From: Pseudomonadota bacterium | GTDB lineage: Bacteria > Pseudomonadota > Alphaproteobacteria > Caulobacterales > Hyphomonadaceae | Length of the DNA stretch: 64,000 nucleotides | Assembly: GCA_039033355.1 (NCBI GenBank) | Contig: JBCCCT010000001.1 | Span: forward strand, 5,893 to 69,892 | Direction of reading: 5' to 3' | In this document: one piece after another, positions 30,454-50,373 of the stretch | How the letters are laid out: every line of letters starts with the position of its first letter | Position numbering within the stretch: the first letter of the stretch is position 1 | Position numbers and translations under genes: made by a program | The notes under the pieces: model-generated | The model's database searches: none | Seen by the model: only the letters and a program-made list of their open reading frames with translations | What the model was told of the DNA's origin: nothing

Positions 30454-30458
30454 TCTAG

Positions 30459-30574: not shown

Positions 30575-31840
30575 ATGACACACCGTGATATCAAATTTGG
30601 CGCTCTGATTGCGCTGAGCTTCGCTTTGGGGACTGGCACAGTCGCGGCGCAGGAAGACGAAGACTTCTTCATCCGGGATAAGTATGAAGCAGTTACCGAA
30701 CGGGCACAGCCCGAGTTCGATCCACTACCAGTTCGCGTGGGTGCATTCGAAGCGCGTCCGCAAGCTGGCTTCTCTGCTGGTTTTACCGACAACCTGTTCG
30801 CGACCACGGCAAACGAAACCGATGACACATTTGTCGGCTTCACCCCAAGTGTTGAGCTAGACTCAACCTGGAGCCGTCATGCACTCGGTTTCAATCTCGA
30901 TCTTGACCATCTCGAATATACTGATGTGAGTTCAGAGAGTCGGACAAATCTGGGGCTAGGCGCCGAAGGCCGCGTGGATGCGAGCAATGCAGTCGCCTTG
31001 TTTGGATCTGTGCGTTTCGATGATTTGACTGAACCACGCTCGAATATTGCAAGTTTGCAAAATGCGGCCGAGCCTGTTGAATTCAGCCGCGTTGGCGGCG
31101 AAGCCGGTTTTCTCTACCAATCCGGTCGAATCAGGATTCGCACCGCTGCAGGCCTGGTGACTTTCGACTTCGACGATATCGAACTCGATGGCGGCTTGAT
31201 CCAGGATCAGGATTTTCGCGATCGCGATGAAACCACCATCTCAAGTCGGTTCTCTTATGCGGTCGAACGGGACTGGGCAGTGTTCGCGGAAGCTGTTTAC
31301 ACCGATAATGACTATGACCCGCCAAATATCTTCAACGCGTTCAATCGTGACTCTCAAGGCACAGCATTGCGCGTTGGGTCGGATTTTGAACTCGCCAGTC
31401 TGTTGCGCGGCGATATCGGCGTGGGCTATCAGCAATATGAGTATGACGATCCGTCCTTCTCCGATGTTGATGGCGTTTCAGTTGTCGGCAATCTGCAATG
31501 GTTCGTGACACAACTCACAACGATCTCCGGCAATGCCCAGCGCAATGTTATCGATCCAGGCCTGGTGCTGAGTAACGCTGCGGTTGAAACCAGTATCTCT
31601 GGACGTGCCGATCATGAATTGCGACGCAACCTGATTCTCACGGGTGAAGCGCGATTCACCAATTTCGATTTCGAGAACATCGCCCGAGATGATGACAGAT
31701 TCACCGCCAGAGTTGGTGCAACCTGGAAAATTAACCCAAATATCTGGTTAGATGGCTCTTATGAGTTGACTGACCAATCCTCAAACGTGCAAGATTTCTC
31801 AGAAAATCGCGTGCTGTTTGGCCTGCGCATTTTCCCGTAA
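30575..31840 (+). CDS. Outer-membrane beta-barrel protein (Wzp-like candidate partner of the short OPX)
   Basis: Signal peptide MTHRDIKFGALIALSFALGTGTVAAQ. The sequence shows alternating amphipathic beta-strand patterning with many D/N/G turns, and an aromatic C-terminal strand (VLFGLRIFP). The track start (TTG at 30545) is less likely. Confidence 0.6.
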   Translation: MTHRDIKFGALIALSFALGTGTVAAQEDEDFFIRDKYEAVTERAQPEFDPLPVRVGAFEARPQAGFSAGFTDNLFATTANETDDTFVGFTPSVELDSTWSRHALGFNLDLDHLEYTDVSSESRTNLGLGAEGRVDASNAVALFGSVRFDDLTEPRSNIASLQNAAEPVEFSRVGGEAGFLYQSGRIRIRTAAGLVTFDFDDIELDGGLIQDQDFRDRDETTISSRFSYAVERDWAVFAEAVYTDNDYDPPNIFNAFNRDSQGTALRVGSDFELASLLRGDIGVGYQQYEYDDPSFSDVDGVSVVGNLQWFVTQLTTISGNAQRNVIDPGLVLSNAAVETSISGRADHELRRNLILTGEARFTNFDFENIARDDDRFTARVGATWKINPNIWLDGSYELTDQSSNVQDFSENRVLFGLRIFP

Positions 31841-31911
31841 GAGCAGGGTGTAATTTAGGCCCGAGTCTTGCTCATCAGAGCAAGACTCTGTGCCATTGAG
31901 GGAAGTAGATT

Positions 31912-34167
31912 GTGAACAAGCCGTTTCGCCTAGCCGCCCGTGATCAGTCGCGGGCGGTCTATCATTCAGAATATGGGCTCCCGAGCGAAGACAAGATCAC
32001 GGATCCTAATCAGGTTCTTCGTGCTTTTCGGCGACGCCTGCCCTTATTCTTCATCACCTTGCTCACAGTTTTTGGTGCGGTTGCAGCCTGGACGTTCCAG
32101 GCAACCCCGGTCTTCTCGACCAGTGCCTCTGTCATTATTGATGCCCGCGAAACCAATGTGGTCGATTTTGGCTCAGTTTTGTCCGGCTTGCCGCCAGACT
32201 CTGCAGTTGTCGATACGGAAGTTGAGATTATTCGATCGCGCACACTTGCTGAGAAAATCGTTCGACGTCTCGATCTCGTGAATTCGCCGGAATTTAACTC
32301 GCGCTTGCGTGAACCAGGTACAATGGATCAATTCCGGGCCGGGCTTAAGTCGGTCCTGAATGGGGTTTTTAGTGGTCCGGATGCGCCGGAAGCGCCAGTC
32401 GATTCCGAAACGGCGGCCCGCGCCGAGATGGATGGCGTGGTCGATGCATTCCTGTCCAGGACGGGCGCATATCGAATTGGCACGACTTACGGGATCGCCA
32501 TTTCAGCCAGCAGCACCAATCCTCGTTTGGCGGCTTCGATCGCGAATGAGGTTGCTGACCAATATCTGCTCGAACAGCTGGATGCGAAATATGAAGCGAC
32601 ACGACGCGCCAACGCCTGGATCGAGGATCGTTTGGCTGAGTTGCGTGAAGAGCTGAACAATGCCGAAAGTCTGGTCGAAGCCTATCGATCGGCATCCGGC
32701 CTGTTCACGTCTGGTGCCACAACGCTCAACGAACAACAGATGACGGACCTCAATGCGCAGTTGATTGTGCAGCGGGCGGACCTGGCCGAGCGCGAGGCAC
32801 GCCTGGAATCTGTGCGGCAGATCGCCCAGCGTGGTGGATCCGCCGCCGCGAGTTCTGAAGCCCTGCAGTCGCCAGTCATCGCAGACCTGCGTCGTCAGCA
32901 AGCCGAGATCAATCGCGAAAAGGCCGATCTGGAAAACCGCTATTTGCCGAACCACCCTGAGATCCAGCGGATCAATCAGGAAATCGCCAACGTGAATTCC
33001 GAGATCCAAAGTGAAATTCGCCGGATCGTCTCGAACCTGGAAAGCGAAGTTACAATTGCGCGCCAACGCCTGAACAGCCTGGAGCGAAACCTGTCCACCA
33101 TGCGAGCCACCCTCGCCGAGAATAATAGAGCCAGCGTGCGTTTGCGCGAGCTGGAGCGAAATGCAGAAGCGTCACGCACCACTTATGAGACTTATCTCGA
33201 ACGGTATAAGCAGATTGATGATCAGGAAGATCTGGCCCAGGCGGATGCACGTATTCTGTCGCGCGCTACGGTTCCCGGCGCACCTTCTTTCCCCAAAACG
33301 TCTTTGAATTTGGTGATCGGGGTGATCCTGGGCGGCATGTTTGGCATTCTTGTCGTCATCATCACGGAGTCTTTGAACAGTCAGATCAGTACCGGCGACG
33401 ATGTCGAAGCCAATTTCAAGGTTCCGTTCCTTGGCAATTTCCCGCAACTCAAGGGTCAGGGCCGAAAGGATCCGGCCGACTATCTCGTCAACAACCCGAT
33501 GTCGAGTTATGCGGAAGCTTTGCGAAACTTACGCGCCTCGCTTCTGTTTGCCGATCTGGATTCGACGATCAAGACCGTGGCCATCACCTCGTCGCAGCCC
33601 AATGAAGGTAAGTCGACTCTGACCTATGGGCTCGGTCGAATGTCCGCCATGTCGGGGACAAAAACCTTGATCATTGATGGCGACTTCCGTCGTCGCCAAT
33701 TGTCGGTCGCAACTGTAGGTGATGAGCCGGTCAATGGCTTCCTGGAATGTCTGTTTGGCGAATGCTCGCTGGAAGAGGCGATCATGAAAGACAACAAGAC
33801 TGACTTGCATATTCTTCCATTGACCGCCGACCGTCACACACCACGGGATGTATTCGGGTCTCGGGTCTTTGACGAGATTCTGGAGCGCCTGAAACAGGAA
33901 TATGATCTGATCATTTTTGACACAGGTCCAATTCTATTGATGGCTGAAACACGGGTCCTGACCAGCAAGGTGGATCAGGTTGTCGTCGTCGCACGCTGGT
34001 TGAAGACCAACCGTGCCGCGCTTAAGCAGACCCTGTCTATTCTCACTGATTTCGGTGCGACTGTGACCGGCATTGCGATCAATCGCGTCGATGTCGATAA
34101 GTACCATCGCCAAGGCTATGGTCACTCGGGATATCGATCATACTCGAAATATTACTCGAACGGCTAA
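31912..34167 (+). CDS. Polysaccharide co-polymerase / BY-type tyrosine autokinase (Wzc/ExoP/GumC-like)
   Basis: A Wzz-like N-terminal domain with two TM helices and a long coiled periplasmic region. The C-terminal P-loop domain carries Walker A SSQPNEGKST, A' LIIDGDFRRR and B LIIFDTGP, and ends in the tyrosine cluster YHRQGYGHSGYRSYSKYYSNG. GTG start. Confidence 0.85.
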   Translation: MNKPFRLAARDQSRAVYHSEYGLPSEDKITDPNQVLRAFRRRLPLFFITLLTVFGAVAAWTFQATPVFSTSASVIIDARETNVVDFGSVLSGLPPDSAVVDTEVEIIRSRTLAEKIVRRLDLVNSPEFNSRLREPGTMDQFRAGLKSVLNGVFSGPDAPEAPVDSETAARAEMDGVVDAFLSRTGAYRIGTTYGIAISASSTNPRLAASIANEVADQYLLEQLDAKYEATRRANAWIEDRLAELREELNNAESLVEAYRSASGLFTSGATTLNEQQMTDLNAQLIVQRADLAEREARLESVRQIAQRGGSAAASSEALQSPVIADLRRQQAEINREKADLENRYLPNHPEIQRINQEIANVNSEIQSEIRRIVSNLESEVTIARQRLNSLERNLSTMRATLAENNRASVRLRELERNAEASRTTYETYLERYKQIDDQEDLAQADARILSRATVPGAPSFPKTSLNLVIGVILGGMFGILVVIITESLNSQISTGDDVEANFKVPFLGNFPQLKGQGRKDPADYLVNNPMSSYAEALRNLRASLLFADLDSTIKTVAITSSQPNEGKSTLTYGLGRMSAMSGTKTLIIDGDFRRRQLSVATVGDEPVNGFLECLFGECSLEEAIMKDNKTDLHILPLTADRHTPRDVFGSRVFDEILERLKQEYDLIIFDTGPILLMAETRVLTSKVDQVVVVARWLKTNRAALKQTLSILTDFGATVTGIAINRVDVDKYHRQGYGHSGYRSYSKYYSNG

Positions 34168-34232
34168 AGGCGGTTTCAATGGCGGGAGGCTTGCATGCTT
34201 CCTGTCACTGAATGCAATTTTGAGGCACGGCA

Positions 34233-35120
34233 ATGGGTGAACAATCAACGATCGTAGTGGGTGTTGCGACCCTGGGGCGGCCAGATGATGTCGCCGATCT
34301 GCTCGAGGGCTTGCAGAAGCAAACCCGTATGGCCACCAAGGTCGTCCTTTCCGTCACAGATATGGAAAAAGACGCACCACCGGAAGAAAAGCGCTTTGGC
34401 GCCGAGGTCCTGATTGGCAGCAAGGGATTGTGTGCGCAGCGCAATCGAATTCTCGAAAAAGTCGGCCACGATTACGACTATCTGGTCTTCTTTGATGATG
34501 ATTACATTCCATCAAAATCGGCCATTGAAGGTGTGATCGACTTCTTCGATACCAATCCTGACGTGGTTGGCATTACGGGTCACTTGCTGGCGGATGGTAT
34601 TCTCGGACCAGGCATTACGCGCGATGAGGCCGTTGCTCTAATCGAGGCGTTTGATGCTGAGCCAGCCCCCGCGCCGACGCGGGTCAATGGCCTGCGCGGT
34701 TTGTATGGCTGTAACATGGCCTACCGTCTGTCAGCGATCGAAACCGAAAGGTTCGATGAAAAACTGCCACTCTATGGCTGGCAGGAAGATGTGGATTTTT
34801 CGAACCGTTTGATGGCGAAAGGTGATCTGGTGGAAACCAATGCGTTTGTCGGCGTGCATCGCGGCACCAAACGCTCGCGTTCACCAGGCAAGAAATTGGG
34901 CTATTCGCAAGTCGCCAACCCGCTTTACCTCGTCAAGAAAGGGTCCATGAGTCGAGGCCGCGCCTATAAACTGATGATCAAGAACCTGATCGCCAATCAT
35001 GTGAAAATCATGACTCCGGAGCCATGGGTCGATCGCGTCGGTCGCGCAAATGGCAATTGGCATGCCTTGTTTGATCTGCTGCGCGGCAAAATGGACCCGC
35101 AAAAGATCAACTCGCTCTGA
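34233..35120 (+). CDS. GT2-like glycosyltransferase
   Basis: IVVGVATLGRPD and the DxD context LVFFDDDYIP. 295 aa, soluble. Confidence 0.7.
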   Translation: MGEQSTIVVGVATLGRPDDVADLLEGLQKQTRMATKVVLSVTDMEKDAPPEEKRFGAEVLIGSKGLCAQRNRILEKVGHDYDYLVFFDDDYIPSKSAIEGVIDFFDTNPDVVGITGHLLADGILGPGITRDEAVALIEAFDAEPAPAPTRVNGLRGLYGCNMAYRLSAIETERFDEKLPLYGWQEDVDFSNRLMAKGDLVETNAFVGVHRGTKRSRSPGKKLGYSQVANPLYLVKKGSMSRGRAYKLMIKNLIANHVKIMTPEPWVDRVGRANGNWHALFDLLRGKMDPQKINSL

Positions 35121-35179
35121 CATCTGATGATGCTGCGTCCTTCTCTGCTGTCCCGAATTGAACCGATCGGAGTCACCCT

Positions 35180-36661
35180 GTGTCTCTGATTGGACTGATC
35201 TTTATCGCTTTGGCCGCAGCAGCGGTCTTCCGCTCACAGATGGCGGCGCTGTCTGTGATGGGTATCGCCGCCTTGTTTCAAGCTGCGACGGTCATGGATC
35301 TGGGCATGGCCACCATTCCGCCCGGCCATGTGACACTGGCCTTTTTTATTCTGGCTGTAGTATTGCGGGTCAATGGTCTTGGGGTGGCGGTGTCAGCTCT
35401 GGTCTATCCAAGGGCCGGTTTCTTCCTCGCCATGCTGGTGGGGTGGGCGGTGATTTCAGGCTTTGTCCTGCCGCGTGCCTTTGCCGGCATGGTTCAGGTC
35501 ATCCCGCTGAACCTGATTGGCGACTATTTCGTCAAAGTGCCGCTCTTCCCCCGGTCCGCAAACTTGAATCAATCGGTCTATTTCATCGGTAATCTTTGTG
35601 CATTCCTGTTTGTCTTCGGGATGATGAAAAGCCCGGGCATGTTGAAAAAGGCGGCTGGTGCAGGGTTGATCATTTGCGGGGCCAATATGGCGATTGCGGT
35701 TCTCGACTCATTTACGTTTGCCATCGGTCAGCCCAACCTCCTGGATTTCATGCGGAACGCTGGTTACTCGCAATTATTCGGTGCGACCGTTATGGGTCTC
35801 AAGAGAATGACCGGGTCCTTCACCGAGGCTTCAGCCTTCTCGGCCATGGCGGTTGGCCTGTTCGCCTTCGCGTTCCGATTGTGGCGCGGCGGTGTTTACA
35901 CAAAATGGTCCGGCCCGCTTGCCATGGCTTTGGCCCTGGGCGTGGTGCTCGCCTTTTCGTCGACCGGATTTGTCGCCTTCGGAGTCTATTTCATTGTCAC
36001 GTACTCCCTGAACCTCGTTTCGCAAGAAGGTGGCGGCGGAATTGCCGGCGCGCAATCACGCCGCATGTTCTTCGTGTCTCTGGCGCCGATTGGCGCTCTG
36101 GCGATCGCCGTCCTGGTCGCACTGCGGCCGGATGTGCTGGACCCTGTGGTTGAACTGTTTGACAGTTCCATCGTCACCAAGTTGTCGAGTGCCAGCGGTC
36201 AGGAGCGGATGGCCTGGAATCTGAGCGGGATCAGCAACTTTTTCAGCACCTTTGGCCTTGGTGTGGGTCTCGGATCGGTGCGGACGTCGAGCTTCCTGGT
36301 CTCCGTGCCGGCCAATCTCGGCGTGATCGGCATCCTGCTCTATGGTGCTTTCTTTTATCGGCTCTTCTTCTCGTCCAATGGACAACGCTGGGGTCATATC
36401 GACCCTGAGAGTGAGCAGATCGTTGCCGCCGCCCGATCCTCCTGTTTTGCCCTGTTGATCGCCGCTGCTGTATCGTCTTCGACGATGGATCTCGGCCTGA
36501 TCTTTCACATAATGGCAGGCATTGCCTGTTCATCACCGGCCTATTTCCTGCGCCAGAGCGCGCGTGGCCCGGGCCCCGTTGAGGCGGCGGAGTATGACGG
36601 CTTGGGGAATGTCCAAGGCCTCGATGGCTATCCAGGTAACTTCAATCAACCGCCGCGTTAG
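35180..36661 (+). CDS. Polytopic membrane protein, second Wzy-type polymerase candidate
   Basis: 493 aa with about 11-12 hydrophobic helices. GTG start. I saw no recognisable catalytic motif, so the call rests on topology and context only. Confidence 0.5.
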   Translation: MSLIGLIFIALAAAAVFRSQMAALSVMGIAALFQAATVMDLGMATIPPGHVTLAFFILAVVLRVNGLGVAVSALVYPRAGFFLAMLVGWAVISGFVLPRAFAGMVQVIPLNLIGDYFVKVPLFPRSANLNQSVYFIGNLCAFLFVFGMMKSPGMLKKAAGAGLIICGANMAIAVLDSFTFAIGQPNLLDFMRNAGYSQLFGATVMGLKRMTGSFTEASAFSAMAVGLFAFAFRLWRGGVYTKWSGPLAMALALGVVLAFSSTGFVAFGVYFIVTYSLNLVSQEGGGGIAGAQSRRMFFVSLAPIGALAIAVLVALRPDVLDPVVELFDSSIVTKLSSASGQERMAWNLSGISNFFSTFGLGVGLGSVRTSSFLVSVPANLGVIGILLYGAFFYRLFFSSNGQRWGHIDPESEQIVAAARSSCFALLIAAAVSSSTMDLGLIFHIMAGIACSSPAYFLRQSARGPGPVEAAEYDGLGNVQGLDGYPGNFNQPPR

Positions 36662-36751: not shown

Positions 36752-38503
36752 TTAGCTGAGCTCTTGCTTCAGATGATCAGCCAAACGAATGGCGACAGAC
36801 GTGATCATCAAAGTCGGGTTTGCATGTCCACATGTCGGCAGAACCGAGCCGCCAGCAACATAGACGCCCTGACAATGCCGGACCTTGCAATTCTCATCGA
36901 CAACGCCGGTCGTTTCGTCCGTGGACATCCGCGTCGTGCCTGAAGTATGCGCCGTGTCGATGATTGGCACGGCACTCAGATCACCCGCAGTGATCCAATC
37001 TTCAAGGAGAGGTTCCGGCAGGCCGGCCTTGATGAATTGCTCGCGGATCAGCTCACCCATCCGCATCAGCGTACGCAAGGGCCGCTCGCCTGGTTCCCAG
37101 GTAACTTGCGGTAAAAACTCGCCAAGCGAATTTTTCTGATCGCTCAATTGGATGCGATTATGAGCCAGCGGTTCCTGTTCAACAATCGCGTCAAACCCGC
37201 AGCTGATCAATTTGTGGGGTACGCCCTGGGTCTGATATTCCTCGACTACGAAATTCGGCATCATGCGCACCATGACATTGACAATGGCATTGCGCAGACC
37301 GCGTGGCACGCGGTCGCTTTGGAGGAAGAGGCGGCCGGCGCCGGTAAACATCATGCCTGGCGCTTTCAGGATTGAGAGCACATCGCGAATAACCGACTCA
37401 CTCTGTCCGCGCAGCAATCCCGCCAGCGCGCCCCAGGGATCATCTTCGGAGCGATCGGCGACGCAATAGGCGCCGCAATTGTTTAAGCCTTCTTCCGCCT
37501 GAATAGGCATATTCAATCCCAGACCATGCATATACATGTCGACGCGATTGTTTGACTGCAGCCCAAAGAAACCAAATTGATAAGTGATCTGTTTGATATA
37601 TTTCGGATCAAACTTTACGACCGGCGCGTTCATATGGTCCATCAGATAACGGCCGACCTGATCGCGATCATTGCCCAGCCCATTCGGATTTTTGGTTGTC
37701 GATGCCAGCAAGAGCCGCGCATTTTCCAGAGCTCCGCAAGAAATGACGACTTTCTTGGCGCGGACTTTTGCAGACCCGCCACCAAGACCGATAAAGTCCG
37801 CCTCGACCATCTCGGTGCTCGCGTCTTCGATCGGCGTGACACATTTCGCAGTGGCGTTGACCAACACGCGAATATTATCTTCCTTCTCCATCATGAAGTC
37901 AGGGCCCATGCGCATCATGCTGACTGGATTGTTTCGCGAACGCGCGAATTGCCAAAGGAATGACGAGAAGACGTCGGGATCAAGATTTGGCTTGGTCGCC
38001 TTGCCAGTGTAGCGATCCCAGAAATCGTCGCCGTAAGAACCCTCGCCCAGATTCAGTCGTTTCTCGGCGCGGCGGATAAAGGGCTCAAGATCATTCTCGT
38101 CGAACGGCCAACCCGATTCCGGTAACCAGTCGCGCTTGGCAAAGTCATGCGGTGAGAAGGGCGCAGACTTCCCGGCCCAGGCCGCAGTCGACCCGCCCAG
38201 GCCACGACAGCGCACGCCGAAGCGCTGAACATCGGCCGACCATTTCTCAGCCTGGTGTCCGTGATATTCGCGGCGTCGTGAAATCCATGTTTCCGGGACG
38301 GTGTCACTTTCGAGGATGACTTCGTTCAGTCTCTCGTGTTCGTCCGTCTGTTCCGTATCGCCGCTTTCCGCGATCAGGACTTTCACCGAGGTGCCAAAAA
38401 ACTCTCGTGCAATGGTCAGGCCGGCAGCGCCGCCACCAATGATCAGCAAATCAGTTTCGAAGATCTCGCCTTCGGGAAACGAATTGAGGTTCTTAATGTC
38501 CAT
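36752..38503 (-). CDS. GMC-family FAD-dependent oxidoreductase
   Basis: FAD-binding motif DLLIIGGGAAGLT at the N-terminus. The C-terminal GMC signature is HTSGTTRMS...VVDENCKVRHCQGVYVAGGSVLPTCGHANPTLMI. No signal peptide. Confidence 0.85.
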   Translation of the reverse strand: MDIKNLNSFPEGEIFETDLLIIGGGAAGLTIAREFFGTSVKVLIAESGDTEQTDEHERLNEVILESDTVPETWISRRREYHGHQAEKWSADVQRFGVRCRGLGGSTAAWAGKSAPFSPHDFAKRDWLPESGWPFDENDLEPFIRRAEKRLNLGEGSYGDDFWDRYTGKATKPNLDPDVFSSFLWQFARSRNNPVSMMRMGPDFMMEKEDNIRVLVNATAKCVTPIEDASTEMVEADFIGLGGGSAKVRAKKVVISCGALENARLLLASTTKNPNGLGNDRDQVGRYLMDHMNAPVVKFDPKYIKQITYQFGFFGLQSNNRVDMYMHGLGLNMPIQAEEGLNNCGAYCVADRSEDDPWGALAGLLRGQSESVIRDVLSILKAPGMMFTGAGRLFLQSDRVPRGLRNAIVNVMVRMMPNFVVEEYQTQGVPHKLISCGFDAIVEQEPLAHNRIQLSDQKNSLGEFLPQVTWEPGERPLRTLMRMGELIREQFIKAGLPEPLLEDWITAGDLSAVPIIDTAHTSGTTRMSTDETTGVVDENCKVRHCQGVYVAGGSVLPTCGHANPTLMITSVAIRLADHLKQELS

Positions 38504-38577
38504 GGATCACTCGTTGTGGCGGGTTAAAGCTGTTCATCGACAATCGCCGTGCAAGCTTCTTGCCGATTATTCTGTGG

Positions 38578-39522
38578 TCAGGTCGCGGTTTCTGCGGGGG
38601 TGCTATATTTCTCAATCAATCGGTCAACAAGGGCGCGGGTTGCATGTGTTCCGGCGATTTCGTTCATTCCGGTGCCTTCGAATTCAAGTCCGAGATAACC
38701 GCGGAAATCGGACTCGATCACCTGCTTCATCATGCCTTCGAAATCGAGCGTGTTTTCATTGCCATCAGCGTCGAAGCCAAACGCTTTGACGCTGACCCCC
38801 TTGGCATAGGGCATCAATTCCTGAACGCCTTTAACGCCATCATATTTACTGCCATCCGGCAGTTTGAAATTCCCGAAATCGGGCAAGGTGCCGATATGTG
38901 GCGAGTTGGCCTTTTTCATCAGGTCCGCCAGCCAGCCACCATGTTGAGAGAAGCCGCCTTTGTTTTCGATGACCAGGTTCATGCCTTGTTGAGAGGCATA
39001 GGCTTCCAGTTGATGCAAGCCATCAAGCACCAGCTTGTGCTGTTCTTCAAATGGCAGGTCATTGTCAGTTTCAGCGATCACGCGGATGGCATGACAGCCA
39101 AGGAAGGCTGCGACATCGACCCATTTCCGATGGTTGATTGCGGTCTGCATACGGGCATCTGCGTCAGGGTCACCGATCGCGCCTTCGCCATCGACCATGA
39201 TCAAGACGCTATCGACGCCAGCGCCGTCAGCCCGTTTCTTGAGTTCGGTCCAATACGCCATGTCTTCGCCGAGCCCGCGATAAAAGGTGCTGACATATTC
39301 TACTGCACCTATATCGAATGTCTCGCGGACGAATTCCGGGAAGTGTAGCGGATTGAGCGGCACCTGAAAGAAGTCCGAGAACCGCTCGGTCAACGCAAAA
39401 TGCAGGCGCTTGGCGTGACGGCGAAAGATCGAACCGCCACTGCCAATCTTCCGATGCAAGGCATATTGCGCGAAAGAGTATTTGAACCGGGGCTCTGAGC
39501 TATTGGCTAAAGGCGAACTCAT
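38578..39522 (-). CDS. Xylose-isomerase-like TIM-barrel protein (sugar phosphate isomerase/epimerase family), cytoplasmic paralog
   Basis: It is clearly paralogous to 41425..42387 (shared blocks DIGAVEYV, GDPD, IENxGG, GTLPDFGNF, ELMPYAxGVSxKxFGFD). The preferred start, ATG at 39522, lies 13 nt after the wzx stop. No signal peptide. Confidence 0.75.
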   Translation of the reverse strand: MSSPLANSSEPRFKYSFAQYALHRKIGSGGSIFRRHAKRLHFALTERFSDFFQVPLNPLHFPEFVRETFDIGAVEYVSTFYRGLGEDMAYWTELKKRADGAGVDSVLIMVDGEGAIGDPDADARMQTAINHRKWVDVAAFLGCHAIRVIAETDNDLPFEEQHKLVLDGLHQLEAYASQQGMNLVIENKGGFSQHGGWLADLMKKANSPHIGTLPDFGNFKLPDGSKYDGVKGVQELMPYAKGVSVKAFGFDADGNENTLDFEGMMKQVIESDFRGYLGLEFEGTGMNEIAGTHATRALVDRLIEKYSTPAETAT

Positions 39523-39535
39523 CTTGGCAGAATCC

Positions 39536-41053
39536 TCAATCTTGGCTTTCGACGGACGGGGCGGGTGGGGTCGCAACAGGTTTGCCGCGTTTCAGAATTT
39601 TCCGCAGCAGCCCCGCAATCGCAGACTCAATGCCTTCTGGCTCACCGCTCAGCTTCCACAATGTGGCAACCGTCGCGCAATAAGCGATCATGCCGGCGCT
39701 GCCCAGCATGGCTGAGGTCCAGACGATCGAGAGCGGCGAATCATAGCTGAGGAAGGGACGCAGCAGATAGACAATCGCGGCCAGAACCGCCATGCCGGCA
39801 AAGGGGCGCAACATGGAAAAGGCTTGATCTCTCAGCCGCAAGCCGATCAGGTGGCGGACAATGAAAGCACCGGCAATGGTCCACGCCGTGACCCCGATCA
39901 GCAGTCCGACCAGAAATCCATTCACGCCAGCCAGGTGCCAGCCAATGAACAGACACGGCACTTTCACGACCAGACCGCTCGCGGCTTGCAGTGCATTGTA
40001 TCGGGCTTTGTCCAGTGCCAGGACGACACTCGGCACGGGCTGGGATGGCAGCTGGATGATGGCGGACAGGGACAGAACCGCCAGGAACAAAGAGGCTCCT
40101 GACCAGCTGTCATTAAAGGCGAGGGTGACAATTGGCTCCGCCAATGACGCCACCAAAGCCAGCACCGGGGCGACGGCGACAACGACCGCCGTCGATGCGG
40201 TCAAGTATCCAGGCCGGATCGCTTCCGGGGTCCGTAATTCAGCAAAGGCGGCAATAAAGGGTCGGATGATCGGAATAACCAGAACCTGAAACGGCGCGCC
40301 CGCCAGCGTTTGGGATATCGAGTATTGCCCAACCATATCTTTGCGGGCGTTCAGACCCAGAACAAAGATGTCGGCCTGCCAATTTGCTGCGACAAAGAAT
40401 TGCGACACCGTGGTCCAGCTAATCATGTCGGAAAAGACCGGCCAGTCTTTTAGCGACAAGCGGGGGCGATAAGGTGCAAAGATGTAAGATCCGATAATCA
40501 TCGAAACCGGGGTCAGAACGGTCATGATGGCCAGGGACCAATAGCTTTTTGTCCACAGCGCCAGCGGGATAGCGATACAGGCCGTGACGATCTTGGCCAG
40601 CGTGTCGATGATGGCTTCCGGGAAGTAGTTCAGGCGGCGCGCATACATGACCAGTTTCGGATTGACCAGACCACGCAAGGCCGGCGACATGGCCAGGAAG
40701 ACCATCAGCAGGCCGAGTCGCGGCTCGTCATAAATATGCATCGCGACAGGAGCCATCGCAATCACGAGACCGGTGACAAGCAGTGCCCGAATAGCGGATA
40801 TCGTAAACGCCGTATCGAGCATGGAATCCGTGACGGTCGGCGTTCGGATCAAGGCTTGAATGACCGGGATCTCGGTGACGGATTCGGTGAACTGGATAAA
40901 GATCATCGCGATCGCGACCAGGGCGAAATCCTCTGGCACCAGAATCCAGGCCAGAATCAGGATCAGAGCCAGGTCAACGAATTTGACAAATATCCGCGCA
41001 CCAAGAAGCGCAGCGCTGGCAAATGCCGTCCGCTTTGTCACATCTTGAGCCAT
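39536..41053 (-). CDS. Wzx-type oligosaccharide flippase (MOP superfamily polysaccharide biosynthesis protein)
   Basis: 505 aa with about 12-14 TM helices and a typical Wzx-like N-terminus (AFASAALLGARIFVKFVDLALILILAWIL). Confidence 0.8.
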   Translation of the reverse strand: MAQDVTKRTAFASAALLGARIFVKFVDLALILILAWILVPEDFALVAIAMIFIQFTESVTEIPVIQALIRTPTVTDSMLDTAFTISAIRALLVTGLVIAMAPVAMHIYDEPRLGLLMVFLAMSPALRGLVNPKLVMYARRLNYFPEAIIDTLAKIVTACIAIPLALWTKSYWSLAIMTVLTPVSMIIGSYIFAPYRPRLSLKDWPVFSDMISWTTVSQFFVAANWQADIFVLGLNARKDMVGQYSISQTLAGAPFQVLVIPIIRPFIAAFAELRTPEAIRPGYLTASTAVVVAVAPVLALVASLAEPIVTLAFNDSWSGASLFLAVLSLSAIIQLPSQPVPSVVLALDKARYNALQAASGLVVKVPCLFIGWHLAGVNGFLVGLLIGVTAWTIAGAFIVRHLIGLRLRDQAFSMLRPFAGMAVLAAIVYLLRPFLSYDSPLSIVWTSAMLGSAGMIAYCATVATLWKLSGEPEGIESAIAGLLRKILKRGKPVATPPAPSVESQD

Positions 41054-41424
41054 TCTACGTCATCCCCTCGCCAAACGCGTTGCGAGCTATACTGTCCCCA
41101 AAATGGCGTTGCGCCGACACCCGGTTTGAACCCGCGTGCGCGCGCCACGACGCCAGACATTTCCCTAGCATCGAAGCTGCGGCGATCAACGGGGGAAACG
41201 CTGCCTGAGGCGTTACGTCTCTGTTTGTGTCTGTTTGGTACGCAGTTTCGGTCTTGCTGCCCGCGATCGAAGACATGCCTGCCGCGAATGTTGGGCATGG
41301 TGCAGGCAGGATCGACAAAAAGGCGGACATGTTTGGAAGGCTCCGAAACGCGATGCGTGGACAGGGATGCATGAAATGTGCGAGATTAACTGCAAGAGAC
41401 TTGCCAATTTGACGGGGACTAAAA

Positions 41425-42387
41425 GTGGTTAATTCAACGCGTCGACAAGCCCTGCTCTGGGGCGGAGCTATGATCGGAACTATGGCCGTGTCAGGCTGTG
41501 CGGATGCGCAAGCCCCGGACCCGGTTTCTGAGCCAAATGCAGACCCGGAATTATTCAAGATTTCGCTGGCGCAATGGTCACTTCATCGCGCGCTTTATGC
41601 CGACAGGAATGATCCAAATCATTTGCCGCCCCTGATGTTCCCGGTGAAAGCGCGGCGGGATTTCGATATCGGGGCCGTCGAATATGTGAACTCATTCTAT
41701 CGCGATACCGTGCGCAATGAATCCTTCCTCAACCAGCTCAAGAATGTCGCCGATAATGAAGGGGTGAAAAGCCAGCTCATCATGTGCGATGGCGAAGGCC
41801 GGCTTGGGGATCCTGATCCGCAGGCGCGCACTCAGTCGATCGAGAATCACTACAAGTGGGCCGACATGGCGGCGCATCTGGGCTGTAAGTCCATTCGCGT
41901 GAATGCGTTCAGCGCGGGCAGTTTCGAAGACCAGCAATTCTATGCCGCGGACGGCCTGGTGCGCCTGTCCGAATATACCCGACAGTATGATATTTCAGTG
42001 ATTGTCGAGAATCATGGCGGCTGGTCCAGCCACGGCGCCTGGCTGGCTGGTGTCATGAAGTTTGCCGATAGCAAATGGGTCGGCACCTTGCCGGATTTTG
42101 GCAATTTCACCTATGGTGACGGCGCAAAATATGATCCTTATCAGGGCGTTGAAGAGTTAATGCCGTATGCGCATGGCGTCAGCGCCAAGAGTTTCGGATT
42201 CGATCGCAATGGTGATGAAAGCCGTTTCGATTATGAGCGTATGCTCCGCATCGTTCTCGACGCCGGCTTCCGGGGCTTTATTGGCGTTGAATATGAAGGC
42301 AATCAGGTCAGCGAACCCGAAGGCATTCGAAAGACCAAGGCACTGCTTGAGCGGTTGCGCACACAGCTCGCGCCCGAATATGCCTAG
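41425..42387 (+). CDS. Xylose-isomerase-like TIM-barrel protein, Tat-exported lipoprotein paralog
   Basis: GTG start. It carries the twin-arginine motif STRRQALLWG followed by the lipobox AVSGC. The remainder is paralogous to 38578..39522. Confidence 0.75.
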   Translation: MVNSTRRQALLWGGAMIGTMAVSGCADAQAPDPVSEPNADPELFKISLAQWSLHRALYADRNDPNHLPPLMFPVKARRDFDIGAVEYVNSFYRDTVRNESFLNQLKNVADNEGVKSQLIMCDGEGRLGDPDPQARTQSIENHYKWADMAAHLGCKSIRVNAFSAGSFEDQQFYAADGLVRLSEYTRQYDISVIVENHGGWSSHGAWLAGVMKFADSKWVGTLPDFGNFTYGDGAKYDPYQGVEELMPYAHGVSAKSFGFDRNGDESRFDYERMLRIVLDAGFRGFIGVEYEGNQVSEPEGIRKTKALLERLRTQLAPEYA

Positions 42388-42388: not shown

Positions 42389-43534
42389 TCATTCGTCTGA
42401 AGCGTCCAAACCCAGCAGTTCGCGACTGATCTCGACATGTTGTTCGATGAATCGATCGGCATTCAATTCGCCATTACGAATCGGAATCTGTGCCCGTTTG
42501 GCACGCTCCATAGCGTTCTGAGGATCTGATAATAGGTCAATTGCGGCCGCCCGTAGAGCTTCTGGATCCTGTGACGGAACAAACGTCACCGCATCTTTCG
42601 CATAATAGGCATCGAGCCCCCCTGCATCGCTGACAATGAGCGGCACACCATGGATGATCGCTTCCTGAGAAACTGTCGCGCCGCTGGCGTGCAGATTCGG
42701 GATAAGCGGTACCACCATGATCGATGCGGCAGCGATTTCCTGTTTCAGCTCCTGATCCGTCTTCAATCCCCGTATTTCAACATTCGTGGCCCCTTTTGCG
42801 AATTTCGCTTTCAGCTTTGTTGAAAAGATTTTCAGCTCAATCCCGGGCTGATTGGCGAAAGCGTCGATTGCGGTTTGCCAATCGCGATGACGGTCATTGC
42901 CGATACAGACAATGCGATGCGGTGTGTTTTTTCGCAAAACCGGGGCTTCCATCCCCTCATGCGGTATTCCAAATCGCACCAGATCCACGCGCTTGTTCGG
43001 AAAGAGGTTTCGGGCAATCTCCAGATTGAGCGGCGAATGCACCGTTAGGACATCGACATATTTGACCAGATACCGGTATAGGGCTCGCCGCAGCGGATCG
43101 ACGCCAGGCCATTTATCGTACAGCCAGACGCTTTGCCCCAATAGTTTTGGACGAGGTTTCTTCTTGCCGCGCAAGGCCATGATCATAGCCATGGCGAGAA
43201 ATTGCGACTCCGTGTGGGTCCAGACGATGTCGGCGGCCATGGCCTTTTCAGCATTATTTCGGGCATGAATATAATCGAAGCCAAAGATGACCCTAAAGGC
43301 GCCGCGGAACAGATTGAGGATGGGCGCATTCTTGATTTTCAGAGAAAAATCGACATCACACCCCATGTCCCGGGCCCGGTGATAGCCGTAGGGCGTGGGA
43401 TCACATATCCCGACAAGACTGCCTTCTGACCACATCTTCTCCCAGGCGATCACATCCTGCCCATGCGCCAGGTGAACAAAGACCTTGATCCGGTCTTCAG
43501 ACGGCTCTTTCGCGGCTGGTTCAGTTTGTGTCAT
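42389..43534 (-). CDS. GT4/GT1-type glycosyltransferase
   Basis: GT-B C-terminal region (PNLHASGATVSQEAIIHGVPLIVSDAGG). The preferred start is ATG at 43534, which overlaps the TAA of the upstream acyltransferase by 1 nt. The track ORF extends to 43675. Confidence 0.8.
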   Translation of the reverse strand: MTQTEPAAKEPSEDRIKVFVHLAHGQDVIAWEKMWSEGSLVGICDPTPYGYHRARDMGCDVDFSLKIKNAPILNLFRGAFRVIFGFDYIHARNNAEKAMAADIVWTHTESQFLAMAMIMALRGKKKPRPKLLGQSVWLYDKWPGVDPLRRALYRYLVKYVDVLTVHSPLNLEIARNLFPNKRVDLVRFGIPHEGMEAPVLRKNTPHRIVCIGNDRHRDWQTAIDAFANQPGIELKIFSTKLKAKFAKGATNVEIRGLKTDQELKQEIAAASIMVVPLIPNLHASGATVSQEAIIHGVPLIVSDAGGLDAYYAKDAVTFVPSQDPEALRAAAIDLLSDPQNAMERAKRAQIPIRNGELNADRFIEQHVEISRELLGLDASDE

Positions 43535-44655
43535 TAACTCGAGTGTCCCGTGGCGGCGCATTTTAGCTTGGTTCGCCTTGAGTTTAGCAAACGCCGGACC
43601 GGTCGGTCGAACGCAATCAGCGCGATCCAGGAGCCGGCGACGACAACCGCAAGATGAAGCGCAATCAGCATCCATACAGGCAAAGCCAGATCAAGGAACT
43701 GCGTTATGCCATTGGACCATGCAAATAGTGGAAAGTGCATCACATAGAGCGGATAGGAGAGTTCACCGCCAACCCGTGACAGATTGAAGGCCTGTCCTGT
43801 TAGTTTGATATCCGCCGCACAAAGGATGAGAAGCGGCGCCCACGCGAAAACAAAGATCGCATCACAGATCACAGACAAGTTTGCATTGTCGCCACGCGGA
43901 ATCAGCAATGGGATGATCAAACCGAGGGCCACCACCCAGAACGGTAGACGCCGCGGAAATGCAGCGTGTTTGTGCACTGCATAGACGATTAAACCCGCAG
44001 CGAACGAGATCCCGACGCGTGGAATGCCCCAAAAGAAATCCAAAGTCCGATCACCCAGCAAGAGATCGCCATATGCGAATCCGGCACTCAGGAGTGTGAC
44101 TGCACAAAGGATGGCAATCCCGACGGTGCGTCGGAACGTGAGAAGGGCAAATGCAGCGGCCCAAGCAAAATTGATCAAAAGCTCATAGAACAGGGACCAT
44201 AATGGTCCATTGATCGGGAACACTTCCAGCGGGCCGCTTAGCGCTATTGTCTCACCTAGATAGGGCAAGACGAACAGCCCAAGTGCGCTGGCAATCAGGA
44301 CCTCGGACAGCATGACATCGTCATTACCGAGTAGAAACTTACTGAGGAAATAGCTCGCCGCGACAATGACCGACAAAGCCATCAGCGGATAGAGCCGGAT
44401 CATCCGCGTGAGGGCGAAGTCTCCGAGTTGCAGATCGCGCCCGATGCGGTCTCCATAGGCGTGCGCCATCACAAAACCGCTCAGGCAGAAAAAGAAATCA
44501 ACCGCCAGATCCCCGCGCGGGACGAATACATAAGTGTCAGTCCAGTTACTCAGATGAAAAAAGACCACAGCGAAGGCGGCAAGCCCGCGCAAGGCGTCGA
44601 GGGCGGCATAGAAGGTCTTTGTCCGACCCGGATTGGGCTGTACTCTTTCCGACAT
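43534..44655 (-). CDS. Acyltransferase family 3 (membrane O-acyltransferase, OafA/YrhL-like)
   Basis: LDALRGLAAFAVVFFH near the N-terminus and about 10 TM helices. The preferred start is ATG at 44655; the track ORF starts at 44757. Confidence 0.8.
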   Translation of the reverse strand: MSERVQPNPGRTKTFYAALDALRGLAAFAVVFFHLSNWTDTYVFVPRGDLAVDFFFCLSGFVMAHAYGDRIGRDLQLGDFALTRMIRLYPLMALSVIVAASYFLSKFLLGNDDVMLSEVLIASALGLFVLPYLGETIALSGPLEVFPINGPLWSLFYELLINFAWAAAFALLTFRRTVGIAILCAVTLLSAGFAYGDLLLGDRTLDFFWGIPRVGISFAAGLIVYAVHKHAAFPRRLPFWVVALGLIIPLLIPRGDNANLSVICDAIFVFAWAPLLILCAADIKLTGQAFNLSRVGGELSYPLYVMHFPLFAWSNGITQFLDLALPVWMLIALHLAVVVAGSWIALIAFDRPVRRLLNSRRTKLKCAATGHSS

Positions 44656-45352: not shown

Positions 45353-46360
45353 ATGGCAAAAGGTTTGGTGACGCTGTTTGGCGGGTCTGGGTTTATCGGG
45401 CGATATGCCGCGCGAACCCTCGTCAAGGCAGGCTATCGCGTTCGCATTGCGGTGCGCCGCCCGCATCTGGCGGGTGACGTGCGTCTGGCGGGCGCCCCTG
45501 GTTGGGTCGATATTGTTCAGGCCAATGTTCGCGATGAACAGTCAGTGGCAAGAGCGATTGACGGCGCCACAGCCGTCGTCAATCTGGTCGGCATCCTGTA
45601 CGAAAAAGGCAAACAGACCTTCGAGGCTGCTCAGCGCGATGGCGCGATCAATGTCGCCAAAGCGTGCGCCGATGCTGGCATCGACCGTCTGGTGCATGTC
45701 TCCGCGATCGGTGCTTCCGGAGAGGCAAAGGCCGACTATGCAGAAACCAAGGGCGACGCCGAACAAGGGGTTCGTGAATGCCTGCCATCTGCCGCCATTC
45801 TGCGGCCATCTATCGTGTTTGGACCTGAGGATGAGTTCTTCAATCGGTTCGCGGCGCTGGCGTCGCATCCGCTGACCACGATCGCTCCATTCCTGCCAGC
45901 AATAGGTGGTGGTCAAACCAGAGTGCAGCCGGTCTATGCCGGTAATGTCGCGGAAGCCATTGCCGCTGCTGTTTCGCAAGACGATGCACAGGGCAAGACC
46001 TTTGAGCTTGGTGGACCGAGCACTTATTCTTTTCTCGAATTGTACGATTTCATCGGGCAGACGATTGATCGCAAACGCTATGCATTGCCGTTACCATTTG
46101 CGATCGCAAAACCGATTGGTCTGGCGATAGGAACGCTGTTTCGCTATGTTTGGCCCTTGTCCTCTGGCATTCTCGGCGCGCCGCCAATTACCGGCAATCA
46201 AGTCGAACTCTTAAAGTCAGATAATGTTGTCTCTGACGACGCGCTGACCTTGTCAGACCTGGGGGTCACCGAACTGGAATCGATCGAAGCGATTGTGCCC
46301 AGCTACCTGTATCGCTTCCGGCTTTACGGGCAGTATCATCAGCAGAACGAAGCTTCTTGA
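45353..46360 (+). CDS. NAD(P)-binding extended SDR (complex I NDUFA9-like family)
   Basis: Rossmann motif TLFGGSGFIGRY. The length (335 aa) and overall pattern match NDUFA9/NmrA-like SDRs. Confidence 0.8.
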   Translation: MAKGLVTLFGGSGFIGRYAARTLVKAGYRVRIAVRRPHLAGDVRLAGAPGWVDIVQANVRDEQSVARAIDGATAVVNLVGILYEKGKQTFEAAQRDGAINVAKACADAGIDRLVHVSAIGASGEAKADYAETKGDAEQGVRECLPSAAILRPSIVFGPEDEFFNRFAALASHPLTTIAPFLPAIGGGQTRVQPVYAGNVAEAIAAAVSQDDAQGKTFELGGPSTYSFLELYDFIGQTIDRKRYALPLPFAIAKPIGLAIGTLFRYVWPLSSGILGAPPITGNQVELLKSDNVVSDDALTLSDLGVTELESIEAIVPSYLYRFRLYGQYHQQNEAS

Positions 46361-46367: not shown

Positions 46368-47627
46368 TCAGGCCGTCGCCAGCTCGTCAATTCTGTTTTC
46401 GAACTTTTCAATGTGTGCGTCGATCCAGGTTTCGGGCGTGTGGCACAGCTCTTTCGCATGTTCAAACCCGGCAACGCTCATTCGCTTGATCAGCGCATGA
46501 TCCGCTGCAAACGCCTTGATTGTAGAGGGTAATTCTTTGCTATTGCGAATGGCGAACCGCCTGCCAAATCCAAGCCGTTCAACATCATCCGCGAGCGCCG
46601 CCCGGCGCGTCACGATCACTGGCAATCCGCTAATCGCTGCTTCCAGAATGACCAGGCCAAACGGTTCATTCACACGACTGGGAACGATAAGCGCCCGGGA
46701 CTGACGCGCAATTTCGGCAATCTCGCCCGGTTGTTTCCAGCCGACAAATGTCGCGTTCGGATAGAATGCCGCCCCGTTTTGCGACAGCTCACCTTCACCA
46801 ATGACGGTTAGCGGTTCGCCAATTTCGGTTGTCGCCGCCAAAGCGAGATCAGCGCCCTTATCGCCCGAGACACGCCCAACAAAAAGGAACCCGGAATTGT
46901 TCTCCGCCTTGATCCGGTCGTGCGTCCATGGCCGGACCGGATTGGGTATTGTCTCGCCATCCGAGCGCGGAAATCCAGCCTGTTCAAAGCGCTCCTTCAT
47001 GCGATCATGAATATAGGTGAACATAAAGCGCCGGCTGCCAAACTCGGAAATGGTATTGAGATGTCTTTGCCGGGCGAACCGCCAGATCTTGTGCAAGTGA
47101 CTGCGCCGATCGCATGCGCTCATCAAACAGGCCGTCGAGCCTGGCTTAAGATCGCAGGGCAACGTTTTCCTGAAATTCATGAAAGCGCCATTTGGGCAGA
47201 CATTGAAAAAATCATGACAGGTGACGATCGTGCGCTCTGCGACGGCCTTCAAGGCGATAAAGATGGAGGGTGACAGCATTTGCGACCAATTGTGCAAATG
47301 ATAGACGGTGCCCGGCGTATCATGCGCCGCAATCCAGTCTCGCACCAGATCCAGTGCGGCGCTGTTGTGATACCCTTGTCGAAAGGCCTCTATCGCTGAG
47401 ATCTCAAGCAGTGGCTTGGAATTGAGTCCGACGACGTCGACATTCAGATTGTCCAGTTCCGGTGTGCTGGCTTCCCCCGTGAGAAAGGTCACCGGCAATC
47501 CGCGCGAGACATATTGCCGTATGCATTCAGCCGTTAGAATCCCGGCACCCCCTTCGGGTTTGGAAAAATCGTGGATGACCACGACACGTTCTATGCCACT
47601 CACGTGTGGGTCCCTTCTATGGTTCAA
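46368..47627 (-). CDS. GT4-family glycosyltransferase
   Basis: C-terminal GT-B motif PSRVNEPFGLVILEAAISGLPVIV (E-x7-E). 419 aa. Confidence 0.8.
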   Translation of the reverse strand: MNHRRDPHVSGIERVVVIHDFSKPEGGAGILTAECIRQYVSRGLPVTFLTGEASTPELDNLNVDVVGLNSKPLLEISAIEAFRQGYHNSAALDLVRDWIAAHDTPGTVYHLHNWSQMLSPSIFIALKAVAERTIVTCHDFFNVCPNGAFMNFRKTLPCDLKPGSTACLMSACDRRSHLHKIWRFARQRHLNTISEFGSRRFMFTYIHDRMKERFEQAGFPRSDGETIPNPVRPWTHDRIKAENNSGFLFVGRVSGDKGADLALAATTEIGEPLTVIGEGELSQNGAAFYPNATFVGWKQPGEIAEIARQSRALIVPSRVNEPFGLVILEAAISGLPVIVTRRAALADDVERLGFGRRFAIRNSKELPSTIKAFAADHALIKRMSVAGFEHAKELCHTPETWIDAHIEKFENRIDELATA

Positions 47628-50340: not shown

Positions 50341-50373
50341 CGCAGTCTTGAAGTAGAGTAGGAAAACAAACCG

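Follow-up and report, generated by a model that had tools for sequence, protein, structure and literature searches.

What would a flavin-dependent oxidoreductase and two related TIM-barrel proteins be doing around the flippase of an exopolysaccharide (EPS) locus? The question is raised by a 64,000-nucleotide stretch of a Hyphomonadaceae genome, referred to here as the window, in which an EPS locus of the Wzx/Wzy type (~22.7-55.5 kb) houses a GMC-family oxidoreductase (GMC), two xylose-isomerase-like TIM barrels (TIM1 and TIM2) and the flippase gene wzx. The answer favoured here, held tentatively and at slightly less than an even chance, is biosynthetic tailoring of the EPS repeat unit by way of a keto sugar: GMC would oxidise, TIM1 would process the product before the flip and TIM2 would act after it.

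Three of the four genes lie on the minus strand in the order wzx (39536-41053; 505 aa), TIM1 (38578-39522; 314 aa) and GMC (36752-38503; 583 aa), and the gaps of 13 and 74 nt reported between them by the first-pass annotation were correct when coordinates and gaps were re-read. TIM2 (41425-42387, plus strand; 320 aa) is encoded divergently from wzx. Both TIM barrels match Pfam PF01261, and Wzx is a MOP oligosaccharide flippase by Pfam Polysacc_synt_3 (E = 3e-41), with an NCBIfam MOP flippase match (E = 9e-28) that falls under the curated cut-off; by Pfam, its surroundings comprise a Wzz/protein tyrosine kinase (PTK), a Wzy-like protein and glycosyltransferases. The automatic open reading frame (ORF) of TIM1 runs from a TTG at 39576, whereas the orthologues start from the ATG at 39522. 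A GAGGA Shine-Dalgarno sequence overlaps the wzx stop codon at the 13-nt junction (39523-39535, minus strand), and on this ground the two genes are probably translationally coupled. A promoter and terminator scan of 36.4-42.6 kb returned counts at the level of shuffled sequence and was uninformative.

The association of wzx with TIM1 is not confined to this genome. Eight TIM1 lineages, differing from one another by more than 10%, were compared, namely the window group, L171, L172, the P0132 contig, L003, L081, L084 and L082 (labels of the loci retrieved). TIM1 lies directly downstream of wzx in all eight (52-95% identity), and the four closest, at 72% identity or more, have the order wzx-TIM1-GMC. 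Six lineages encode TIM2 divergently from wzx; in L084 it is absent from its usual site between wzx and the GT4-family glycosyltransferase gene GT4a (42389-43675 in the window, minus strand; Pfam). GT4a itself accompanies the TIM2-wzx-TIM1 module, adjoining it in L003, L004, L081, L082, L084 and L171. The invariant unit is therefore wzx-TIM1, usually with TIM2 and GT4a, and GMC is a frequent, not an obligatory, neighbour. Since all eight lineages show the arrangement in the company of wzx and EPS genes and none shows it beside transporters, the view that the module belongs to the EPS locus and is not a stray catabolic cassette was borne out. The coupling of GMC to TIM barrels, by contrast, is lineage-specific: most GMC loci are without a TIM barrel and, of the four more distant lineages, three have GMC apart from TIM1 and L082 has none within 10 kb. 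At L082, wzx and TIM1 reside in a compact five-gene island (5728-10969) in which both extra TIM barrels are Tat-type (twin-arginine translocation), the flanking genes are unrelated and no other EPS gene occurs within 10 kb.

TIM1 and TIM2 had been described as clear paralogues, and their 47% identity over 296 residues (E = 2e-90) excludes chance. The sequence blocks on which that description drew are present in both proteins, save that the one written IENxGG reads IENKGG in TIM1 and VENHGG in TIM2. Within these blocks, ENKGG (with Lys188) and GTLPDFGNF lie at 38953-38967 and 38866-38892 of TIM1 (minus strand), and ENHGG and GTLPDFGNF at 42007-42021 and 42082-42108 of TIM2 (plus strand). Both proteins match PDB 4OVX (TIM1, E = 1.6e-74; TIM2, E = 3e-94), a xylose-isomerase-domain protein of Planctopirus limnophila solved by structural genomics without an assigned function, and the AlphaFold model of TIM1 (predicted local distance difference test, pLDDT, 93.4) superposes on it with a template-modelling (TM) score of 0.94. 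The family so defined is large: of the candidates scored, 5876 reach E <= 1e-10. Among its 120 best matches, every sequence outside the TIM1 clade carries the motif ENH, and a recognisable twin-arginine (RR) N-terminus is present in 85 of the 101 Tat-type (non-TIM1-clade) matches.

The TIM1 clade itself (21 sequences, down to 46% identity) is entirely signal-less, reads ENK in 20 members and ENT in one, and possesses in every member an extra helical segment after AQYALHRK; the helical stretch of TIM1 (residues 25-60; 39343-39450, minus strand) is mostly this clade-specific insertion. Residues invariant across the family (E75, E113, H131, D167, E186, D215, S244, K246, E280 and E282, TIM1 numbering) are kept in TIM1 and TIM2 and are likewise common to 4OVX; the latter is a typical ENH member, whereas TIM1 has lost the signal, carries the extra helical segment and has Lys in place of His188. 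In a neighbour-joining tree, which carries no support values, the TIM1 and TIM2 clades are each monophyletic but are not sisters, and TIM2 is nested in the Tat-type members, to ordinary examples of which it is 52-55% identical as against 47% to TIM1. A recent local duplication is thus unsupported. Tree position and identities instead point to TIM2 as a canonical member of the family that would have been recruited to the locus, and to TIM1 as an apparently older, derived cytoplasmic form.

The two TIM barrels would also differ in location. The N-terminus of TIM2, MVNSTRRQALLWGGAMIGTMAVSGC, places RR at residues 6-7 (41440-41445) and a lipobox, VSGC, with its cysteine at residue 25 (codon 41497-41499). 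This signal (41425-41499, plus strand) is laid out as STRRQALL, then LLWGGAMIGTMAV, then VSGC, and matches, as a pattern only, a Tat motif followed by a hydrophobic core and the lipobox [LVI][ASTVI][GAS]C. Such calls were made by a pattern scan of window ORFs of at least 150 aa, among which the only other Tat-type N-terminus, of the same Tat-plus-lipobox layout, is that of a PhoD-like phosphatase (19929-21659, minus strand; Tat motif and lipobox TRRGLLGASTSVIGLTAC). PhoD is a classic Tat substrate, and the gene offers a useful internal comparison for TIM2. The twin-arginine signal and lipobox first ascribed to TIM2 are present as a pattern, and the RR is conserved in orthologues; the lipobox occurs in the closer orthologues and is missing from those of L003 and L081. 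In several public annotations of metagenome-assembled genomes (MAGs), TIM2 begins only at an internal ATG (305 aa; window 41425-41470) and thereby loses the RR, yet the residues upstream are conserved, which favours the longer, GTG-start protein. TIM2 is predicted, then, to be Tat-exported and lipid-anchored. TIM1, predicted to be cytoplasmic, and GMC were rightly said to have no signal peptide; the GxGxxG motif for flavin adenine dinucleotide (FAD) in GMC occupies residues 23-28.

In a PDB search with the TIM family profile, 4OVX is followed by the alpha subunits of C-glycoside deglycosidases (DgpC1, DgpC/CarB-type; E = 6e-12 to 5e-8) and, further down, by ketose 3-epimerases and UlaE, and the fold neighbours of TIM1 include YcjR, a 3-keto-D-glucoside 4-epimerase. 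These characterised relatives all enolise a sugar carbonyl. The alignment pairs V-E-N-H/K with I-E-V-H and L-E-I-H, GTLPDFGNF with GLIPDFGCF, AVSAK with HMHGK, and EYEG with SEYEE. Accordingly, three of the four metal ligands of the 3-keto-glycoside beta-eliminases align with family residues (Glu, the Asp of PDFG and the Glu of EYE), but the fourth, the His of HMHGK, is replaced by the invariant Ser244 of AVSAK, so that the family departs from the eliminase Mn site of Glu/His, Asp, His and Glu (PMC10628242, PMC8563793). The catalytic His of these eliminases, situated two residues after the first ligand (E/H-x-H; same sources), is present in TIM2, as ENH, and in 105 of the 105 other family matches showing the motif, and its position is that of Lys188 in TIM1. 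The first-pass annotation had allowed that the two active sites might prove unrelated; both keep the family-invariant residues, and they part, Lys against His, at the eliminase catalytic position. Among the locus genes scanned against Pfam, no candidate for a deglycosidase beta subunit (DgpB/CarC) was found, no dedicated search having been made.

GMC possesses the FAD motif GGGAAG (38420-38437), a catalytic-type HxxGTxRM (36926-36949) and GHANPT (36812-36829), all on the minus strand, and scores above the Pfam cut-offs for GMC_oxred_C (73 bits) and GMC_oxred_N (34 bits). Residues H519, G522, T524, R525, M526, H560 and N562 do not vary across 20 homologues, and from their motifs we take the catalytic residues to be the equivalents of His516 and His559 of glucose oxidase. 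The closest solved relatives are the alpha subunit of FAD-dependent glucose dehydrogenase (FAD-GDH) and the large subunit of fructose dehydrogenase (E = 1e-22), followed by pyranose oxidases and the C-glycoside oxidase. The fold neighbours of the AlphaFold2 model (pLDDT 86), comprising fructose dehydrogenase, FAD-GDH, pyranose 2-oxidase and C-glycoside oxidase, are all sugar-ring oxidoreductases, at TM scores of only ~0.55-0.62 that mark GMC as a distant subfamily. A run of five helices (residues ~356-425) is modelled at lower confidence (pLDDT ~68-80) and may be a cap or a membrane- or lipid-binding element. For C-glycoside oxidase entry 7DVE, the label "6'''-hydroxyparomomycin C oxidase" supplied by the PDB sequence tool conflicts with the entry title, "FAD-dependent C-glycoside oxidase", and was not used as evidence.

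Membrane-bound FAD-GDH and fructose dehydrogenase complexes combine a small subunit with a Tat signal, a cytochrome c subunit and a Cys-rich 3Fe-4S site in the alpha subunit. Assignment of GMC to a complex of this type was rejected: the only conserved cysteines are C99 and C539, hence no Cys cluster exists for a 3Fe-4S site, no Gluconate_2-dh3 homologue is encoded in the window, and the neighbours are EPS genes.

When one genome per species was surveyed for GMC, 80 loci emerged, from which 134 immediate neighbours were scanned against Pfam; ORFs were called by simple greedy length, and some neighbour ORFs are over-extended or spurious. Orthologues (35-48% identity) occupy Wzx/Wzy loci of many Alphaproteobacteria, those of Rhizobium, Ensifer, Chelativorans, Novosphingobium, Croceibacterium and Marinibacterium among them, surrounded by homologues of the window genes for Wzx, the glycosyltransferases GT2 and GT4b, PTK, the Wzy-like protein and a GINT1_N protein. 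Their immediate neighbours include DegT aminotransferases (14), epimerases or short-chain dehydrogenases/reductases (Epimerase/SDR; 7), GT4 (7), Wzx (6) and AP_endonuc_2 (4), and DegT lies within 3 kb of GMC in 16 loci.

In Gluconacetobacter johannae, Acetobacter conturbans, two Methylobacterium genomes and P0025 (the fusion loci being L025, L028, L033, L047 and P0025), GMC carries an NAD(P) SDR domain fused to its C-terminus, and a separate SDR follows GMC by 10-26 nt in L013, L032 and L060. The fusion proteins, of 893-970 aa with an SDR of the epimerase/dehydratase type, are single-chain oxidase-reductases reminiscent of DprE1/DprE2; in L025, L028, L033 and L047 the GMC match spans ~10001-11700 and the ORF ends at ~12600-12760. 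A different TIM-barrel subfamily (Hyi-like, hydroxypyruvate isomerase) adjoins GMC in Rhizobium terricola and three Rhodospirillaceae-type MAGs (loci L015, L065, L066 and L068), and most GMC loci have no TIM barrel. Aminotransferase, reductase and enolising TIM barrel represent three standard uses of a sugar carbonyl, and the partners of the GMC clade are therefore taken to process keto sugars; the NAD(P) domain of the fusions and the partners dependent on pyridoxal phosphate (PLP) also place the clade in the cytoplasm. No DegT homologue is encoded in the window, whose GMC clade is nested among DegT-associated clades, and in this lineage TIM barrels appear to have taken DegT's place. These partners fit the first of the earlier proposals, in which the module serves to bring a keto or rare sugar into the repeat unit. 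A side observation concerns the Rhizobium, Ensifer and Chelativorans loci L029-L038, L054 and L064, where GMC and DegT are joined by two proteins of the nonribosomal peptide synthetase (NRPS) type (C-A-PCP and C-PCP-TE), with a 4'-phosphopantetheinyl transferase, a GINT1_N protein, Wzx, GT4, GT2 and PTK at the same EPS locus, a combination suggestive of an amino sugar whose N-acyl group derives from an NRPS-activated acid.

The wider TIM family likewise keeps company with sugar dehydrogenases. A Gfo/Idh/MocA oxidoreductase with a Tat signal is its most frequent neighbour, occurring in 26 of 84 loci, and wzx stands beside the family only in the TIM1/TIM2 clade studied here. In L088, also of the Caulobacterales, DUF1080, GMC, a Gluconate_2-dh3 Tat subunit and a TIM barrel occur in a row, and TIM2 is 53% identical to this TIM barrel. 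Gfo/Idh/MocA neighbours and the L088 cassette together make pairing with a sugar dehydrogenase the rule for the family. The cassette resembles a periplasmic glucoside-3-dehydrogenase system, with DUF1080 as the 3-keto-disaccharide hydrolase, and both its TIM barrel and TIM2 are Tat-type; unlike GMC of the window, to which it is ~25% identical, its GMC rides on the small Tat subunit, and the window encodes neither such a subunit nor DUF1080.

Among known systems, the pairing of a GMC flavoenzyme with a xylose-isomerase-like TIM barrel is found in the C-glycoside 3-oxidase CarA with the C-glycoside deglycosidase CarBC/DgpBC, considered here together with the O-glycoside beta-eliminase AtOGE (PMC8563793, PMC10628242). 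The first-pass annotation had named CarA and CarBC as comparators, and these are indeed the nearest characterised relatives, though distant ones (identity ~13-19%). CarA (7DVE) is among the fold neighbours of GMC, and the deglycosidase alpha subunit has the E-x-H, PDFG-F and EYE motifs in common with the TIM family. However, that system is catabolic, acts on small aromatic glycosides and requires a beta subunit for deglycosylation, whereas the window genes belong to an EPS assembly locus, are split over two predicted compartments, have Ser for the His ligand and, in TIM1, lack the catalytic His. The logic proposed here is also that of E. coli YcjS, a glycoside 3-dehydrogenase, and the 4-epimerase YcjR (PDB 6WN6), where a glycoside is oxidised to its 3-keto form and a TIM barrel then epimerises the neighbouring carbon, although YcjS is an NAD-dependent Gfo/Idh/MocA dehydrogenase instead of a GMC enzyme, the pathway is catabolic and identity to YcjR is 16%.

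Biosynthetic precedents are offered by two further systems. DprE1 and DprE2 epimerise decaprenyl-phospho-ribose, the flavin oxidase yielding a keto intermediate on a lipid-linked sugar that an NAD(P)H-dependent SDR reduces. The same logic is met in the GMC-SDR fusions and pairs, but DprE1 has the VAO fold and not that of GMC, no TIM barrel takes part, and GMC of the window has no firmly linked SDR. In aminoglycoside biosynthesis, GenQ/GenB1 (and NeoQ/NeoB) oxidise a glycoside hydroxyl with a flavin-linked dehydrogenase and aminate the product with an aminotransferase (PMC4039129), matching the GMC-DegT pairs of 14-16 related EPS loci. That pathway nonetheless makes secondary metabolites, the window is without the aminotransferase, whether through loss or because it was never there, and the likeness drawn here is one of logic.

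The tailoring model can then be set out as follows. Cytoplasmic GMC would oxidise one hydroxyl of a repeat-unit precursor, either a nucleotide sugar or, more likely, an oligosaccharide linked to undecaprenyl diphosphate, to a keto or aldehyde group. Where most relatives would then transaminate this carbonyl with DegT or reduce it with an SDR, in the window lineage it would be taken by TIM1, made together with Wzx, which would probably isomerise, epimerise or dehydrate the keto sugar at the cytoplasmic face before the flip. TIM2, with its intact Glu-x-His, would meet the same sugar in the periplasm afterwards and either complete the modification or cut next to it by beta-elimination. Substrate, oxidised position and TIM chemistry are here suggested by homology and by the pattern of partners. 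A candidate keto-reductase partner of GMC is the NAD(P) SDR encoded at 45353-46360 (plus strand; Pfam Epimerase/3Beta_HSD, NDUFA9-like in the source annotation), which is retained at the locus in L004 and L171 and shares only 22-28% identity with the SDRs that are fused to GMC or lie next to it elsewhere. A bolder form of the model, which we consider unlikely, would have keto-sugar editing proceed in two compartments around the flippase: GMC oxidises the lipid-linked unit, Wzx-coupled TIM1 converts or holds it, and the TIM2 lipoprotein performs a metal-dependent beta-elimination or epimerisation outside, such that oxidation-primed, non-hydrolytic chemistry sets the final sugar, chain length or release, the GMC clade being a general generator of keto sugars with interchangeable partners (aminotransferase, reductase or TIM barrel).

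Several observations weigh against the tailoring model. GMC is at the same locus but does not adjoin TIM1 in L003, L081 and L084, and in L082 no GMC lies within 10 kb of the island GT4a-TIM-wzx-TIM-TIM1. No reductase is firmly assigned to GMC in the window. As no periplasmic oxidant is encoded in the window either, TIM2 would have to rely on a keto group that survives the flip. The 4OVX family is biochemically uncharacterised; with an invariant Ser for the His ligand its metal site is non-canonical, and TIM1, with Lys for the catalytic His, could have a different chemistry or none. Finally, no account of GMC enzymes or 4OVX-type TIM barrels in a Wzx/Wzy, EPS or flippase context was found in open-access text.

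Some of these points lend themselves to other explanations. GMC might instead mark a 3-keto residue at which periplasmic TIM2, as a beta-eliminase, cuts the chain without hydrolysis; TIM2 would then be the glycanase of the locus, serving chain length, release or clearance, and TIM1 a cytoplasmic safeguard or a copy of altered function. Such cleavage, which is compatible with the first step of the tailoring model, seems to us unlikely, even though TIM2 keeps the Glu-x-His, PDFG-F and EYE motifs of C- and O-glycoside beta-eliminases (PMC10628242) and is close to the TIM barrel of the periplasmic L088 cassette at 53% identity. No other depolymerase-like gene was seen among the locus genes scanned against Pfam. 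A periplasmic depolymerase is encoded by many EPS loci. Yet the eliminase His ligand is Ser throughout the 4OVX family, GMC-clade partners elsewhere are biosynthetic (aminotransferase and reductase), TIM2 is missing from the usual GT4a-wzx position in L084, and cleavage leaves the invariant coupling of wzx and TIM1 unexplained. Alternatively, the TIM proteins might serve with Wzx and GT4a independently of GMC, for example on a lipid-linked sugar whose carbonyl is already in place, such as a 4-keto-6-deoxy sugar, a ketose or a reducing end, with GMC in a separate tailoring role at the same locus. The L082 island without a nearby GMC, the separation of GMC from TIM1 in L003, L081 and L084 and the many GMC loci without a TIM barrel all favour this, but we judge it rather doubtful, given that GMC is within 10 kb in seven of the eight TIM1 lineages and in one operon with TIM1 in the four closest, that a different TIM-barrel subfamily has independently come to lie beside the GMC clade, and that the wider TIM family is paired with dehydrogenases elsewhere.

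Two further explanations are far less probable. GMC could hitch-hike to the periplasm on the Tat signal of TIM2, as the alpha subunits of FAD-GDH and fructose dehydrogenase do on their small Tat subunit, which would move all oxidation out of the cytoplasm; its closest solved relatives are exported in this manner, and GMC lacks a signal of its own where TIM2 has one. Such export is made very improbable by orthologues that carry a fused NAD(P) SDR domain or adjoin a PLP aminotransferase, both of them cytoplasmic partners, and L084 has GMC and TIM1 with no TIM2 at the usual position, just as most GMC loci are without TIM2. Slighter still is the chance that a sugar-catabolic cassette landed beside wzx by accident. 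Outside the TIM1/TIM2 clade the family does occur mostly in catabolic-looking periplasmic contexts; nevertheless, the arrangement is kept in eight lineages down to 52% identity, always among EPS genes and with no accompanying transporters, kinases or regulators, and on the strength of this conservation the idea was rejected. What probability remains after the tailoring model and these four rivals belongs to an explanation not considered here.

The remainder of the locus is that of a Wzx/Wzy pathway. Core export and assembly genes (29326-36661, plus strand; Pfam and ORF list) comprise a Poly_export-like lipoprotein (29326-29898), named only by synteny with the Pfam-marked Poly_export gene of L081, an unnamed 159-aa ORF (29974-30453) and, all by Pfam, a BBP2_2 porin (30545-31840), the Wzz/tyrosine kinase (31912-34167), GT2 (34233-35120) and the Wzy-like membrane protein (35180-36661). 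This block is kept in L004, L081 and L171. To its left are also a MinD-like ATPase, a Wzy_C protein, a Bac_transf initiating transferase, a GT4 glycosyltransferase and a metallophosphatase. The left edge (22748-25027, minus strand) is formed by the MinD/ParA-like ATPase and the Wzy_C (O-antigen ligase-type) protein, and the latter, along with the Wzy-like protein at 35180-36661, gives the locus two polymerase/ligase-like membrane proteins.

From GT4a rightwards follow an acyltransferase-3, the SDR, the GT4b glycosyltransferase (46368-47627, minus strand; Pfam), a 543-aa GINT1_N-domain protein (47661-49292, minus strand; Pfam), RraA-like, ATP-grasp and Ldh_2 proteins and a second acyltransferase-3. 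GT4b and the GINT1_N protein co-occur with the GMC clade in EPS loci L023, L029-L038, L054 and L064. GINT1_N, the N-terminal domain of plant glucosamine inositolphosphorylceramide transferase, is the sole Pfam match of the 47661-49292 protein, and at least 10 other EPS loci pair such a protein with the GMC clade. The right end (49645-55457, plus strand) consists of two proteins without a Pfam match, the RraA-like aldolase-type protein, the ATP-grasp protein, Ldh_2 (malate/L-lactate dehydrogenase-type) and the second acyltransferase-3; these genes may produce a non-sugar substituent.

The components of this module and the logic of a dehydrogenase plus a TIM barrel are known already from catabolism, and that of a flavin oxidase with a reductase or aminotransferase from DprE1/DprE2 and GenQ/GenB1. 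What is new is their recruitment to an EPS assembly locus, the predicted division into one cytoplasmic and one exported copy on either side of the flippase gene, and a His-to-Lys clade tied to wzx. The usual account of rare and amino sugars in bacterial polysaccharides has NAD-dependent enzymes acting on nucleotide sugars. A flavin-dependent GMC oxidase that recurs in Wzx/Wzy loci and whose keto-sugar partners can be exchanged would be another route to such sugars, one that might, like DprE1/DprE2, operate on the lipid-linked unit. For the 4OVX-type TIM barrels, a very large, mostly exported and uncharacterised family, the EPS-linked pair in its defined genetic context provides a handle on function, and predicted cytoplasmic and periplasmic copies around one flippase present a testable case of one chemistry on both faces of a membrane. 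Should TIM2 cleave at oxidised residues, it would represent a new class of EPS-processing enzyme.

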